Program-made: the position numbers and the translations under genes
NCBI RefSeq assembly: GCF_003018255.1
Contig: NZ_CP027440.1
Direction: 5' to 3' (one strand)
DNA length: 64,000 nucleotides
Origin: Escherichia coli
Lineage (GTDB): Bacteria; Pseudomonadota; Gammaproteobacteria; Enterobacterales; Enterobacteriaceae
Notes under the pieces: model-generated
Told to the model about the DNA's origin: nothing
The model's database searches: none
The model's input: only the letters and a program-made list of their open reading frames with translations
In this document: positions 3,063 to 42,558 of the stretch, piece by piece
How the letters are laid out: each line of letters opens with the position of its first letter
Position numbering within the stretch: the first letter of the stretch is position 1

Positions 3063-6000
3063 TTAATCGGTGTTGCTTTTTTCCGCTTTTCCGGCCATTT
3101 GTGCCAGGAAGTCATAGCGTTTTTGCAAATCAGCTGCAGCATCTTTCCATAACTGTTCTGCCACTTCTGGCTGCTGCGAATTCAGACGACGGAAACGCTG
3201 CTCGTGAAGTAACGTTTCTTCCAGTGCTTCTGACGGCGGGCGTGAATCCAGTGCCAGCGGCAGGTTGCCTTCATCGGCTCGACGTGGATCGAAGCGATAT
3301 AGCGGCCAGAAGCCGGTGGCAGTGAGTTGGCGCATCTGGTCGTGACTGAGTGCCAGATCGTAACCATGCTCTTCACAGGGGCTATAAGCGATGATCAGCG
3401 ATGGCCCCGGATACGCTTCCGCTTCCTGAATCGCTTTCACCGTCTGGTTGAGCTGCGCGCCGAGAGAAATCTGCGCCACATAAACATGACCGTACATCAT
3501 CATGCTGACGCCAAGATCTTTACGCGCTTTACGTTTGCCGTGCTCGCCGAACTTAGTTACTGCACCCAGCGGTGTCGCTTTCGACGCCTGACCACCGGTG
3601 TTGGAATAGCATTGCGTATCCAGCACCAGAATGTTGACGTTTTCCGTCAAACTCAATACATGATCCAGACCGCCAAAGCCGATATCGTAAGCCCAGCCAT
3701 CACCACCAATCAGCCAGATTGATTTTTCTACCAGTGCATCTGCGTCACGTAGCAGTTCATGTGCTTCGGCAACATCTTTGAGTTGCTGGCGTAAAGCTGC
3801 AACCTGTTCACGACGAACCTCTGGCTTGGCGTCTGATTTCAACGCAGTTAGTAATTCCGCCGGGATTTTATCGGCAAATTGATCCAGCAGACGCAGCACG
3901 CGGACACGGTGTTGATCGACCGTCAGGCGGAAACCAAGGCCAAATTCGGCGTTATCTTCAAATAGCGAGTTCGCCCATGCCGGTCCACGACCGTTGGCAT
4001 CGGTGGTATACGGTGTAGAGGGCAGGTTACCGCCATAAATTGAAGAACAGCCGGTGGCGTTAGCGATCAACATCCGGTCACCATAGAGCTGAGTCAGCAA
4101 TTTAATATACGGCGTCTCGCCACAACCGGAGCAAGCACCTGAATATTCAAACAGCGGTGTAATCAGCTGCGATGTACGAATATCAATACGTTCCAGTTTG
4201 CTACGGTCGATTTCTGGGAGGTTGAGGAAGAAATCGTAATTGATTTTCTCTTCTTCGACATGTTCCAGGCGAGACATCATATTGATGGCTTTAATCTCTG
4301 GATTCTGACGGTCTTTCGCCGGGCAAACTTCGACGCACAGGTTACAACCGGTGCAATCTTCCGGAGCCACCTGCAAGACATATTTCTGCCCGCGCATATC
4401 ACGCGATTTCACATCCAGCGAATGCAGGCTGGCAGGGGCGTTTTCCATCGCTTCAGGCGGTACCACTTTTGCGCGAATAGCTGAGTGTGGGCAAGCAGCG
4501 ACGCAGTGGTTACATTGGGTACAGAGTTCCTCTTTCCAGATGGGGATCTCTTCGGCGATATTGCGTTTTTCCCAGCGCGTGGTGCCCATCGGCCAGGTGC
4601 CGTCTGGCGGCAGCGCCGAAACGGGGAGGGCATCACCAAGCCCGGCGAGCATCGCCGCGGTAACGGTTTTCACGAAATCAGGAGCGGCATCGGAAACCAC
4701 AGGCGGTCGATTGGCGCTGTGCGGATTAACCGGCTGCAACGGAACTTCTTCTACGGATTCACGCGCCAGCGCCAGAGCCTGCCAGTTGCGCTCCACCAGA
4801 TCCTGACCTTTGCTACTGTAACTTTTGGCAATCGCACCCTGCAATTCTGCGAGGGCGCTATCGCCAGGCAGAATTTGCGTCAGATGGAAAAAAGCCATCT
4901 GCATGACGGTATTAATACGGGCCGCCAGACCACATTCGCGGGCGATTTTCGCCGCGTTAATCACATAGAAGCGCGCTTTTTTCTGGTTTAACACGGCCTG
5001 AACTTCCTGCGGCAAGCGCGACCATACTTCATCTACGCTGTACGGCGTGTTGAGCAGGAAAATGCCGCCAGGTTTTAAACGTTCAGCCATCTGATATTTA
5101 TCGATAAACTGCAACTGGTGGCAGCCAACAAAATCAGCCTGGGAAATCAGATAAGCGGAACGAATCGGCTGTTCGCTCACGCGAAGGTGAGAAACCGTCA
5201 GGCCGCCCGCCTTTTTGGAGTCGTAAACAAAATAGCCCTGTGCGTACCACGGCGTGGAATTACCGATTATCTTGATATTGTTTTTGGTCGCGGAAACGCT
5301 GCCATCACTACCAAGGCCATAAAACAAGGCTTCAAGTTTCGCCGAGTTTGGCAGGGTGTTTTCCGGCAACGGCAGTGACAGATTGGTCACATCATCGTAA
5401 ATACCAACCGTAAAGCGCGCTTTCGGTTTAGCCGCGTTGAGCTCGGCAAATACCGCCAGTACACAGTCCGGGCCAAATTCTTTGGATGAAAGACCATAGC
5501 GCCCACCAATGACACGGGGCAGGGTTTCGCGCTCGCCATTATTAAAGGCTTCTGCCAGTGCGGTCATTACATCCAGATAGAGCGGTTCTGCCTGGGCACC
5601 GGGTTCTTTGTTTCTGTCCAGTACCGCCACGCTGCGTACGGATCCCGGCAGAGCTTGTAGCAAGTGTTTGGCGGAGAAGGGACGGTACAGGCGAACTTTC
5701 AGCACGCCGACTTTTTCGCCACGGGTTAGCAATTCATCAACCACTTCTTCACAGGTGCCAATGGCAGAGCCCATCAGGATAATCACCCGTTCCGCTTGCG
5801 GATGCCCGTAATACTCAAACGGCTGATACTGACGACCTGTCGCGGCAGCGAAATCATTCATCGCCTGTTCAACATGGTCATAGACCGCGTTGTACCAGGG
5901 GTTGGTGGCTTCGCGAGACTGGAAATAAGTGTCAGGATTGGCGGACGTACCGCGGATCACCGGATGTTCCGGGTTGAGCGCCCGGGCGCGATGAGCATCA

Positions 6001-38737: not shown

Positions 38738-39730
38738 ATGCAGAGCGATAAAGTGCTCAATTTGCCGGCAGGCTACTTTGGTATTGTGTTGGGGACGATA
38801 GGGATGGGATTTGCCTGGCGCTATGCCAGCCAGGTTTGGCAGGTCAGCCACTGGTTAGGGGATGGGCTGGTGATTCTGGCGATGATCATCTGGGGATTAT
38901 TAACTAGCGCATTTATTACCCGACTCATACGCTTTCCGCATAGCGTGCTGGCGGAAGTGCGCCATCCAGTGCTGAGCAGTTTTGTGAGTTTGTTTCCGGC
39001 AACGACGATGCTGGTGGCGATTGGTTTTGTTCCGTGGTTTCGCCCACTGGCGGTGTGCCTGTTCAGTTTTGGCGTCGTGGTTCAGTTGGCTTATGCCGCC
39101 TGGCAAACTGCGGGATTATGGCGCGGATCTCACCCTGAAGAAGCTACCACGCCTGGACTGTATCTGCCGACAGTTGCCAACAACTTTATCAGCGCAATGG
39201 CCTGTGGTGCGTTGGGCTACACCGACGCCGGTCTGGTGTTTTTAGGCGCAGGCGTTTTCTCATGGCTAAGCCTTGAACCTGTGATCTTGCAGCGTCTGCG
39301 CAGTTCGGGAGAATTACCCACGGCGCTGCGGACATCACTCGGCATTCAGCTCGCTCCTGCGCTGGTGGCCTGTAGTGCCTGGCTGAGCGTCAACGGCGGC
39401 GAGGGTGACACGCTGGCGAAAATGCTTTTCGGTTATGGACTGCTGCAACTGCTGTTTATGCTACGTCTGATGCCATGGTATCTCTCCCAGCCATTTAATG
39501 CTTCATTCTGGAGTTTCTCGTTCGGCGTATCTGCACTGGCAACCACCGGTTTGCATCTGGGGAGTGGCAGCGATAATGGATTTTTCCATACGCTGGCGGT
39601 GCCGCTGTTTATCTTTACCAATTTTATTATTGCAATACTGCTCATCCGTACTTTTGCGCTTCTGATGCAGGGAAAATTGTTAATCAGAACCGAGCGCGCC
39701 GTTTTAATGAAAGCAGAGGACAAAGAATGA
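38738..39730 (+). CDS. tehA: Tellurite-resistance / dicarboxylate transporter TehA (330 aa)
   Basis: From internal Met: [30 protein letters not shown]..., polytopic membrane protein. Confidence 0.9.
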
Positions 39731-40320
39731 TCATTCGTGACGAAAACTATTTTACTGATAAATATGAATTAACTCGCACACACTCTGAAGTGCTGGAAGC
39801 GGTGAAAGTGGTTAAACCGGGTAAAACGCTGGATCTGGGCTGTGGCAATGGTCGTAACAGTCTTTACCTGGCAGCCAATGGTTATGATGTTGACGCATGG
39901 GATAAAAATGCCATGAGTATCGCCAACGTCGAGCGGATTAAATCCATTGAAAATCTGGAGAATTTACACACCCGGGTCGTTGATCTGAATAACCTCACAT
40001 TTGATGGACAGTATGATTTTATTCTTTCGACTGTGGTGCTGATGTTCCTTGAGGCTAAAACCATCCCAGGGCTGATTGCCAATATGCAACGTTGCACTAA
40101 ACCTGGCGGTTACAACCTGATTGTGGCGGCGATGGATACCGCTGATTATCCATGTACCGTCGGCTTCCCGTTTGCCTTCAAAGAGGGGGAATTACGTCGA
40201 TATTACGAAGGCTGGGAGATGGTGAAATACAATGAAGACGTCGGCGAGCTGCACCGCACCGACGCCAACGGTAATCGTATTAAACTGCGTTTCGCCACGA
40301 TGCTGGCACGTAAAAAATGA
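39727..40320 (+). CDS. tehB: Tellurite methyltransferase TehB (197 aa)
   Basis: SAM-binding motif [15 protein letters not shown]; start overlaps the tehA stop. Confidence 0.9.
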
Positions 40321-40482
40321 CCCGCTAGGAACAAGGCGCGTGAAAATTCCCCACGCTGAGATGGTTTACTGTTCTTCTTTTCGGTAAGCATATTTTTTAT
40401 CGAATGGATGTGAAATTAATCACAGTAGTCGAAATTTTTTAGCAGCTTAACTTACTGAAATTTAACTACTGATGATTGACTT

Positions 40483-40580
40483 AGCCCCTTTTTCGGCAGC
40501 CCCTTTTTCGGCATTGACTATGTCTTTTTCGGCATTGACTATGTCTTTTTCGGCATTGACTATGTCGTCTGAAAAGGGGC
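40483..40580. repeat. Structured tandem-repeat array: 2 x 15 bp (AGCCCCTTTTTCGGC) then 2.5 x 21 bp (ATTGACTATGTCTTTTTCGGC), closed by an inverted copy AAAAGGGGCT
   Basis: Repeats read and counted directly in the tehB-ydcL intergenic region. Confidence 0.85.
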
Positions 40581-40679
40581 TAAAAAATTTATTTTCACCA
40601 ACACTTTTTTTGCCACAACACGAAGCGGCGCTTTTTGCTATAACTTAGAAAGTAATATAATCATCTCAGGAAACTATTC

Positions 40680-41348
40680 ATGCGTACCACATCAATTGCG
40701 AAAGTTGCAGCTTTATGCGGCTTGTTGGCTCTGTCTGGTTGTGCCTCTAAAATCACCCAGCCAGATAAATATTCTGGTTTTTTAAACAATTACTCTGATT
40801 TAAAAGAAACAACCTCAGCAACAGGTAAACCTGTTTTACGTTGGGTAGACCCGAGTTTTGATCAAAGCAAATATGACAGCATCGTCTGGAACCCAGTCAC
40901 TTATTATCCGGTACCGAAACCATCTACCCAGGTAGGGCAGAAAGTTCTGGATAAAATTTTGAGTTATACCAACACCGAAATGAAAGAAGCGATTGCGCAG
41001 CGTAAACCACTGGTTACCACCGCTGGGCCGCGTAGTCTGATTTTCCGTGGGGCCATTACCGGTGTAGATACCAGCAAAGAAGGGCTGCAATTCTATGAAG
41101 TGGTTCCTGTTGCATTAGTGGTTGCGGGGACGCAAATGGCGACGGGCCACCGTACCATGGATACTCGCCTGTATTTTGAAGGTGAGCTGATTGATGCAGC
41201 GACTAATAAACCGGTTATCAAAGTCGTTCGTCAGGGCGAAGGTAAAGACCTGAATAACGAAAGTACGCCAATGGCTTTCGAAAATATTAAACAAGTTATT
41301 GATGACATGGCGACCGATGCCACCATGTTTGACGTTAACAAAAAGTAA
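40680..41348 (+). CDS. ydcL: Lipoprotein YdcL (222 aa)
   Basis: Lipobox LALSGCASK after a signal peptide. Confidence 0.85.
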   Translation: MRTTSIAKVAALCGLLALSGCASKITQPDKYSGFLNNYSDLKETTSATGKPVLRWVDPSFDQSKYDSIVWNPVTYYPVPKPSTQVGQKVLDKILSYTNTEMKEAIAQRKPLVTTAGPRSLIFRGAITGVDTSKEGLQFYEVVPVALVVAGTQMATGHRTMDTRLYFEGELIDAATNKPVIKVVRQGEGKDLNNESTPMAFENIKQVIDDMATDATMFDVNKK

Positions 41349-41382
41349 TACCAGTTGCGCCATCGTTAGATGGCGCTTTTTA

Positions 41383-42558
41383 TTATCGGTTTCTGTTAGC
41401 GATTAAATTCAACACCACGTAACAAACGCCTCCGGCAATTAATCCCCAGAACGCAGAACCAATCCCGACCAGCGTCAATCCACTTGCCGTTACCAGAAAT
41501 GCCACCACCGCCGCGTCGCGCTCACGCTCATTATGCAGCGCCTGATACAAACTGCCGCCAATGGTACTCAACAGCGCAAGACCTGCCAGCATCTGGATCC
41601 AACTTACGGGCAGGGCAGCCATCATCCCGGTAATGGCACTACCAAACAGACCTGCGATCAAATAAAAAATGCCGGCAACGGCAGCGGCCAGCCAACGTTG
41701 ATCTTTATCCGGATGCGCTTCCGGGCTTTGGCAAATAGCCGCGGTGATTGCCGCAATACCGACGGAATAAACGCCGAAAGGGGAAAAAAACAGTGCCAGC
41801 AATCCAGTAAACACAATTAATGGCGAAACAGGAGCCGAATATCCAGCTGCTTTCATTGCTGCGATACCCGGTGCGTTTTGCGATGCCATCGTCACCAGAA
41901 AAAGGGGGAGTGCAACGCTCAGGCTGTGAGCAAACGAAAAATCAGGGCTAATATAAGTGGGGAGAACGGGTTTAAAGACAACATCAGTTGTGACAACGTC
42001 ACCTTGCGCGATAACGATCACGACCCCAATAATCATCGCGGCAATTACCGCATAGCGCGGTGCAACGGCCTTGGTTGCCAGCCATACCAGCAACATACTG
42101 CCACACAACGTAAATTGATCATCCAGACTGGCAAACGCCTGTAAACCAAAGCGTAATAAAATCCCGGCAAGCATTGCCGCCGCAAGCGAGTGCGGAATAA
42201 TGCGCATCAGACGAGCAAAGAGTCCCGTTATGCCGCAGAGGACTATTAACGCGTTGGTGACAATAAAAACGCCGATGGCTTCGTTAAGTGTTAGTCCCTG
42301 TAATCCGGTGACCAACAAAGCCGCGCCAGGCGTTGACCATGCGGTGAGAACAGGTACGCGATACCATAATGTCAGAGCCAGCGTACTGACGCCCATTGCC
42401 AGCCCCAGCGCCGTCATCCAGCCAGAGATTTGTGCAGTGGTGGCTCCGGCGACAATCGCTGCTTGCCAGATTATTGCCGCTGAACTGGCGTAGCCAATTA
42501 ATACCGCCAGAAACCCCGCCAGTAGCGTGGGTGGAGGAATAGAAAACAGACGCATGGT
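41383..42558 (-). CDS. ydcO: BenE-family inner membrane transporter (391 aa)
   Basis: From internal Met: MRLFSIPPPTLLAGFLAVLIGYASSAAII..., polytopic. Confidence 0.85.
   Translation of the reverse strand, partial: TMRLFSIPPPTLLAGFLAVLIGYASSAAIIWQAAIVAGATTAQISGWMTALGLAMGVSTLALTLWYRVPVLTAWSTPGAALLVTGLQGLTLNEAIGVFIVTNALIVLCGITGLFARLMRIIPHSLAAAMLAGILLRFGLQAFASLDDQFTLCGSMLLVWLATKAVAPRYAVIAAMIIGVVIVIAQGDVVTTDVVFKPVLPTYISPDFSFAHSLSVALPLFLVTMASQNAPGIAAMKAAGYSAPVSPLIVFTGLLALFFSPFGVYSVGIAAITAAICQSPEAHPDKDQRWLAAAVAGIFYLIAGLFGSAITGMMAALPVSWIQMLAGLALLSTIGGSLYQALHNERERDAAVVAFLVTASGLTLVGIGSAFWGLIAGGVCYVVLNLIANRNR

Follow-up and report, generated by a model that had tools for sequence, protein, structure and literature searches.

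Tandem repeats in the tehB-ydcL spacer

The window, by which we mean the whole 64-kb stretch of Escherichia coli DNA that was analysed, contains the tehB gene (39727-40320) and the ydcL gene for a DUF3313 lipoprotein (40680-41348), both on the plus strand, and the spacer between them holds a block of direct repeats, as in the original prediction. Tandem Repeats Finder reported a first array at positions 40483-40513 (period 15, 2.1 copies, 100% match, unit AGCCCCTTTTTCGGC) and a second array at positions 40503-40566 (period 21, 3.0 copies, 100% match, unit CTTTTTCGGCATTGACTATGT). Together with an alignment of the alleles, this placed the 15-bp unit at 40483-40512, as 2 perfect tandem copies, and the 21-bp unit at 40503-40566, as 3 such copies, neither of which was assigned to a strand. 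The array of 3.0 copies of CTTTTTCGGCATTGACTATGT is the one described previously as two and a half 21-bp repeats, which, in that phase, are 2.5 copies of ATTGACTATGTCTTTTTCGGC. The order of the segments over positions 40470-40600 is TGATGATTGACTT, 2 copies of AGCCCCTTTTTCGGC, ATTGACTATGT, 2 copies of CTTTTTCGGCATTGACTATGT, CGTCTG, AAAAGGGGCT, and AAAAAATTTATTTTCACC.

The tehB-ydcL repeat block is a real, non-random feature. The 15-bp and 21-bp arrays accounted for 2 of the 3 tandem arrays with a score of at least 50 in the 64-kb window, and the word CTTTTTCGGC, which had been noted as common to all units, had 7 occurrences in the window, where 0.17 would be expected, and 4 of the 7 were inside the array. 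Elsewhere in the window, near-matches to the repeat words of 15 bp and 10 bp (CTTTTTCGGC, AGCCNCTTTTTCGGC) were found in unrelated sequence, with neither repeats nor a hairpin around them.

The block is enclosed by a perfect inverted repeat (I3) of 12 nt with 100% complementarity, the left arm being TTAGCCCCTTTT at 40481-40492 and the right arm AAAAGGGGCTAA at 40572-40583 (plus strand), the latter followed by AAAAATTTATTTT with no immediate T-run. This agrees with the earlier observation that the array ends with the inverse of its first unit. We refer to the paired arms as the basal stem and to the interval 40481-40583 (plus strand) as the expanded stem-loop, the counterpart of which in K-12 is a hairpin of 46 nt (about 1660-1705 in locus L001). 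The region 40470-40600 was predicted to fold as plus-strand RNA with an energy of -37.1 kcal/mol (z = -3.85); the inverted repeat, this z-score and the folds of all alleles described below bear out the proposal that the block could form a long hairpin.

The heptamer ATTGACT is located just 5' of the hairpin (40475-40481, plus strand), with further copies starting at 40513, 40534, and 40555. The contained hexamer TTGACT starts at 40476, 40514, 40535, and 40556. One suggestion was that these hexamers form a region of stacked promoters, in which each TTGACT serves as a -35 element and the extra copies add transcription starts directed toward ydcL. Each of the 4 hexamers does match TTGACA at 5 of 6 positions, but the sequence 16 to 18 nt downstream consists of repeat sequence (CGGCAT, TTGACT) or GGGGCT, so that none has a -10-like partner at the right distance. 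Furthermore, a consensus scan identified no plus-strand promoter in the array, in the whole of positions 40200-40680, or in the K-12 spacer, and the conserved promoter elements of ydcL are located further downstream. We consider the stacked promoters to be extremely unlikely.

Copy-number alleles among E. coli genomes

The original prediction proposed a comparison of repeat numbers across E. coli genomes, and this comparison revealed real copy-number variation. The spacer in the window is 359 nt long, versus 301 to 303 nt in nearly all E. coli, and was 100% identical to that of E. coli MDR_56 (NZ_CP019903.1), which was the sole full-length match among 5,426 complete E. coli genomes. Here, we denote the alleles by the number of 15-mer copies followed by the number of 21-mer copies. 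Alignments indicated that about 98.6% of the 5,426 genomes contain a single copy of each unit, allele (1,1), in the arrangement TT-AGCCCCTTTT-TCGGCATTGACTATGTCGTCTG-AAAAGGGGCT, which is a plain stem-loop (AGCCCCTTTT-(22 nt)-AAAAGGGGCT). The 5 other alleles were (2,2) in about 67 genomes, (1,2) in 3 genomes, (2,1) in 3 records, two of which are assemblies of strain E166, (3,1) in a single genome (strain 104), and (2,3) in MDR_56 only.

A query with three 21-mers yielded 71 of the 5,426 genomes with at least 2 copies, all 3 copies being present in MDR_56 alone and 2 copies in the other 70, while the junction of the 15-mer duplication was identified in 72 of the 5,426 genomes. When the junction and the 21-mer counts were combined, the carriers of expansions amounted to about 75 genomes, or 1.4%. 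Many of the carriers were isolated from chickens, turkeys, and other birds, including avian pathogenic E. coli (APEC) strains of serotype O78:H4. A metagenome scan for the 21-mer junction recovered a single contig, with allele (2,2), and no array larger than (2,2). An assembly artefact is unlikely, given the roughly 75 independent assemblies and the 2 concordant assemblies of strain E166. In the spacer searches, 5 of about 5,420 matches were on records labelled as plasmids, although the spacer is chromosomal.

All of the expanded alleles that we examined belong to one spacer haplotype, with 100% identity outside the repeats, and the allele alignment showed clean insertions of whole units into otherwise identical sequence. 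A query made by placing allele (1,1) on the MDR_56 background matched only 69 genomes at 99% identity or more, and the best 40 of these 69 matches were all split in 2 pieces, as expected for expanded alleles. The expansions examined are thus confined to this haplotype, on which no (1,1) allele was present among the matches listed.

Rapid change in the number of units

To place the alleles on a scale of nucleotide divergence, we compared 20 kb of flanking sequence from 11 carriers, which contained 198 variable columns. Strains 13P477T, APEC E12049, and 2009C-3133, all with allele (2,2), were identical at all 198 columns to GPEC996 with allele (1,2) and to strain 104 with allele (3,1). Relative to this identical group, E166 and 2014C-3338, both with allele (2,1), differed by 1 and 2 SNPs, respectively, 2017.09.02CC (2,2) by 40 SNPs, MDR_56 (2,3) by 71 SNPs, and E04 and 200164, both (1,2), by 144 SNPs. 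E04 and 200164 were identical to each other over the 20-kb flanks, and in both strains the tehA gene is annotated as frameshifted (loci L090 and L092, 13300-14291).

Since 4 alleles were found within 0 to 2 SNPs per 20 kb, units are gained and lost much faster than point substitutions accumulate. Such fast change in the number of whole units is the behaviour of a variable number tandem repeat (VNTR), with units arranged head-to-tail and strains on identical flanks that differ by whole units. The array has also either persisted or been moved by recombination across moderately diverged backgrounds (40 to 144 SNPs).

The 4 alleles at 0 to 2 SNPs per 20 kb could also be taken to suggest that the number of copies tunes gene expression in the manner of a contingency locus, by altering either read-through from tehAB or the distance between upstream elements and the ydcL promoter, and thereby generates heritable but reversible variants of expression in a poultry-associated lineage. 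With a perfect CRP-type site (40409-40424) on one side of the array and the ydcL promoter on the other, the 57 extra bp alter the spacing of the two, and many of the carriers are avian isolates. However, allele (2,2) dominates, with about 67 of the 75 carriers, the long units and the copy numbers of 1 to 3 are unlike classical phase-variable tracts, and the array is located outside the spacer between a -35 and a -10 element. The basal stem is, moreover, predicted to be retained in all alleles. Taken together, we regard tuning of this kind as unlikely.

A single-copy stem-loop in Escherichia

The hairpin was identified at 5,490 places in 5,406 genomes (blastn, word size 11 nt, E up to 10), with a median of 1 place per genome. 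A dispersed family of the REP/BIME type was considered as a candidate and ruled out by this median. A scan anchored on YdcL, with one genome per species, showed that the tehB-ydcL arrangement is present in many Enterobacteriaceae and that the hairpin is present in Escherichia only, namely in E. coli, in 3 divergent representatives or cryptic clades (L011 to L013), in Escherichia sp. MOD1-EC7003 (L010), and in E. albertii.

The hairpin region of K-12 was predicted to fold with an energy of -26.7 kcal/mol and z = -4.65 on the plus strand and with z = -2.49 on the minus strand, the better fold of the plus strand being due to G-U pairs. In the other Escherichia, the 2 strands folded similarly and the plus strand was not always the better. 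The stem contains an internal loop, and the apical part can pair too, CGGCA with UGUCG, including one G-U pair. In an alignment of 9 Escherichia sequences, 91% of the cells were paired in the structure derived from K-12. Only 2 pairs changed on both sides among the 9 hairpins, a result that was matched in 73 of 500 shuffles, so that covariation was not significant in an alignment whose sequence barely varies.

The ATTGACT heptamer is also present in the ancestral loop, and the 2 ancestral copies, which are 23 bp apart, were invariant in the 9 Escherichia sequences. This invariance would be expected if a regulator bound ATTGACT or CTTTTTCGGC and if the extra copies formed an iterated array of binding sites that recruits more of the protein for control of ydcL or tehAB. 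A unit of 21 bp, which corresponds to 2 helical turns, would place added copies on the same side of the helix, and the position upstream of the ydcL core promoter would be suitable. On the other hand, the invariance of 7 nt means little since the mean column identity was already 91%, no known regulator motif was matched, and the repeats are perfect and arose by recent duplication. The multi-copy state was limited to about 1.4% of E. coli, the remaining 98.6% and every other Escherichia carrying one copy of each unit, and the sharing of CTTTTTCGGC by all units results from overlapping duplications of one ancestral segment. This earlier proposal is thus very unlikely to hold.

The same conserved hairpin raised the possibility of a small structured RNA, or of the 5' leader of an extended ydcL transcript initiated at an upstream CRP-dependent promoter. 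Here, the stability and conservation of the fold, with the K-12 z-score given above, and a perfect TGTGA-N6-TCACA located 57 nt upstream of the hairpin and conserved in Escherichia are arguments in favour. However, no acceptable -10 element was found on the plus strand downstream of the CRP site, MOD1-EC7003 has kept the hairpin without the CRP block, and no canonical terminator defines a 3' end. A search of positions 39500-41500 against Rfam (E up to 10) gave no match, the best E-value being 0.49; the best overlapping match, at 17.8 bits where the gathering score is 70, was to a Tetrahymena snoRNA model and represents noise. Likewise, the one RIL-seq-derived table searched contained nodes for the tehB and ydcL coding sequences only, with low sRNA scores, and no node for an intergenic region or UTR. 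What remains of the small-RNA proposal is a single conserved hairpin that is real, while an RNA gene or leader at this position is improbable.

The original prediction also stated that the block overlaps no open reading frame, which we found to be not literally correct, in that a mechanical ORF of 58 amino acids (39 amino acids in K-12) on the plus strand at 40472-40648 crosses the repeats in frame. A small protein into which the repeats are inserted would fit with unit lengths of 15 and 21, both multiples of 3, and with a frame that is open in all 6 alleles (39 to 58 amino acids). But the start is not preceded by a Shine-Dalgarno sequence (AACTACTG-ATG), and an extra A (+1) shifts the frame in O157. 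In place of the ATG, Escherichia sp. E1V33 has ACG and E. albertii has ATA, and 8 of 39 residues are different between the translations of K-12 and of the SCPM-O-B-8794 representative (L011). The ORF was therefore judged to be non-coding, with the start, the frame and the ribosome-binding site all lacking conservation among relatives, and we give the small protein practically no credence.

Origin of the array by overlapping duplications

The alignment of the expanded alleles with the single-copy state showed that the 15-mer comprises the left arm and 5 nt of the ancestral loop, and that the 21-mer joins the final 6 nt of the left arm to 15 nt of the loop. As judged from these alignments, the block is a recent, strain-variable tandem duplication, that is a VNTR, in the top of a pre-existing stem-loop. 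The ancestral state is the single-copy, Escherichia-specific stem-loop in the tehB-ydcL spacer, in which one tandem duplication of AGCCCCTTTTTCGGC (15 bp) and another of CTTTTTCGGCATTGACTATGT (21 bp) occurred with an overlap. The overlap of the 2 duplicated segments explains why CTTTTTCGGC is common to all units. Subsequently, whole units were added or removed, probably by misalignment of slipped strands, which gave rise to alleles (1,2), (2,1), (3,1), (2,2), and (2,3).

As the mechanism we infer replication slippage, possibly helped by formation of the hairpin. The arrays measure 31 nt (2 x 15 + 1) and 64 nt (3 x 21 + 1), from which it follows that the microhomology at the junctions is minimal (1 nt). 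This is small for classical slippage and is a point against the mechanism.

Partition-function folds of the 6 alleles predicted that the basal stem is kept in all of them, with a total probability of about 1 for pairing of the right arm with one or another left-arm copy, and that the insertions enlarge only the apical region. Given this apical placement and the intact basal stem of 10 to 13 bp, the expansions are probably tolerated and near-neutral. The predicted intact stem would be compatible with near-neutrality, but also with weaker termination or altered spacing.

As a VNTR in a single-copy stem-loop, the block is best regarded as an ordinary slippage polymorphism rather than a designed array of binding sites, a stack of promoters, or a new RNA gene. 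We assign a probability of roughly 75% to the explanation as a whole, which combines a VNTR formed by 2 overlapping duplications in the apex of the stem-loop with a role for the hairpin as a 3'-end element of tehAB, discussed below. Practically no observation speaks against the VNTR part. No new kind of system emerges from the array; it is a clean natural example of what seems to be a tandem duplication nucleated in a hairpin loop, with copy numbers that outpace SNPs. The locus may serve as a fine-scale typing marker in one E. coli lineage with many members from poultry, which is of small practical value.

The stem-loop at the tehAB/ydcL boundary

The hairpin is located 160 nt past the tehB stop codon in the window and 36 nt past it in MOD1-EC7003. 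Downstream of the hairpin, a comparison of spacers across genera identified a conserved promoter-proximal block of ydcL at 40600-40679 (plus strand). This block contains the direct repeat D3, TTTTTGCCACAAC (40607-40619) and TTTTTGCTATAAC, which are 25 nt apart, and the latter includes TGcTATAAC (40636-40644), which resembles an extended -10 element of the sigma-S type. The block also contains the consensus sequence TATAAT (40656-40661), which is an Escherichia addition, and an SD-like AGGAAA. A peak for the RpoS holoenzyme is listed in a genomic SELEX study for the spacer from tehB to ydcL (PMC5493296). The conserved promoter of ydcL itself is probably dependent on sigma-S.

Our best guess is that the hairpin acts as plus-strand RNA, as a stem-loop at the 3' end of the tehAB transcript. 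It may be a non-canonical terminator, or else a barrier to 3' exonucleases after Rho-dependent termination; protection by a 3' stem-loop after Rho-dependent termination is described as a general mechanism in PMC6061677. Several observations point to such a role, among them the location of the hairpin on the coding strand downstream of tehB, the better fold of the K-12 hairpin as plus-strand RNA, and the conserved ydcL promoter block downstream of the hairpin. In MOD1-EC7003, about 127 nt after the tehB stop codon are missing and the hairpin has been kept at a distance of 36 nt. In addition, canonical intrinsic terminators are present at the equivalent place in Trabulsiella and Yokenella, and the Escherichia spacer contains no other terminator-like site on the plus strand.

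The stem-loop shares some of the properties of intrinsic terminators and of protective 3' stem-loops, in that it is a stable, G+C-containing structure on the transcribed strand, 36 to 160 nt after the tehB stop codon, at a place where other genera have canonical terminators. It differs from an intrinsic terminator in that the stem has an internal loop and that no U-rich tract is found 0 to 2 nt after the stem. Because there is no direct T-run and the stem is followed by (G/A)AAAAATTTATTTT (GAAAAATTTATTTT), the hairpin falls outside the definition of an intrinsic terminator, and a consensus scan gave no plus-strand match to a terminator in the array region of the window or in the K-12 spacer. 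We found no 3'-end or transcription start entries for tehB or ydcL in the searchable supplements of the Term-seq, RNA-seq operon-architecture, and RIL-seq papers. The conserved stem-loop at the tehAB/ydcL boundary is a candidate for a terminator that lacks a U-tract, or for some other role.

It seems quite unlikely that the hairpin, with its 2 invariant ATTGACT copies, is a functional regulatory element, acting as a terminator, a control of read-through, or a protein site, whose fast-changing expansions provide a tunable switch of tehAB read-through or of ydcL expression. If such a switch did exist, it would represent a contingency locus of the minisatellite type in a largely poultry-associated lineage, which would be unusual for E. 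coli.

Comparison with other repeat systems

The array resembles bacterial VNTR or minisatellite loci, such as the intergenic loci with units of 6 to 39 bp that are used in MLVA of E. coli, in its perfect head-to-tail copies, its whole-unit changes, the differences in copy number among close strains, and the mechanism, which is presumed to be slipped-strand mispairing. It is unlike such loci in that 98.6% of E. coli have a single copy at the tehB-ydcL locus and polymorphism is limited to one spacer haplotype, and in that 2 overlapping units of different length vary independently. In the literature, we found nothing relevant that links VNTR or MLVA studies to tehB or ydcL.

Like REP/BIME elements, the hairpin is an imperfect palindrome in an intergenic region past a gene and could stabilise the upstream mRNA, but it occurs in a single copy per genome and its sequence is unrelated to REP. 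As in CRISPR arrays, the direct repeats are short and internal dyad symmetry is found nearby, but the units abut each other without unique spacers, number only 2 to 3 copies, and derive from a single-copy hairpin. The earlier statements that the block matches neither REP/BIME nor CRISPR architecture were thus well founded, given the single occurrence of the hairpin per genome and the units that adjoin directly.

Contingency loci share with the array the property that the repeat number changes faster than point substitutions arise within a clone. They differ in that their units are 1 to 8 bp rather than 15 and 21 bp, and in that one allele is dominant here and the array is located outside the -35/-10 spacer and outside any conserved ORF. 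Both unit lengths are divisible by 3, and the array is situated about 56 to 160 nt upstream of the conserved -10 region, which is not the placement of a contingency locus.

Other features of the spacer and the window

The spacer contains a perfect core of the CRP consensus, TGTGA-AATTAA-TCACA, at 40409-40424, which is conserved in E. coli, in the 3 divergent Escherichia representatives (L011 to L013), and in E. albertii. This CRP core is part of a block of about 127 nt (about 40325-40452), which is absent in MOD1-EC7003, Salmonella, and Citrobacter. No paper linking CRP to the regulation of ydcL was found in the literature.

On the minus strand, a promoter-like site (TTCACA-16-TATGCT, 40414 to 40387) overlaps the CRP site. 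In K-12 (L001, 1594 to 1518, minus strand), a terminator-like hairpin, GCGTGGGGAATTTTCACGC followed by GTTTTGTGCT, is located about 30 nt further on and abuts the tehB stop codon, and from its sequence this K-12 pair could specify an antisense RNA of roughly 50 nt. The T-run of the minus-strand terminator-like hairpin is degenerate in MDR_56 (GCCTTGTTCC).

Downstream of ydcL, the ydcO gene follows directly in this strain (41349-41382 between them), and in K-12 a tnpA pseudogene and insQ, which represent an element of the IS200/IS605 family with TnpB, are located between ydcL and ydcO (L001, 2569-3301). The YdcL protein in MDR_56 has the accession WP_078081032.1, versus WP_001261034.1, which was common to the other expansion carriers examined, and this difference suggests a substitution in YdcL that is particular to MDR_56.

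Finally, a perfect (GTAAC)x11 repeat was identified at 14607-14662, within a ydbD-like coding sequence for a 'DUF2773 domain-containing bactofilin', and the annotation of MDR_56 gives this coding sequence a frameshift and an internal stop. Over the same stretch, the sequence is 45 nt shorter in most E. coli, K-12 W3110 among them, which fits with 2 copies if all of the difference is in the repeat. The chicken isolate GPEC464, which also carries an expansion between tehB and ydcL, is 35 nt longer, which by length alone fits with 18 copies. Since the unit length is not divisible by 3, the GTAAC repeat is a candidate for a frameshifting microsatellite, either phase-variable or inactivating.
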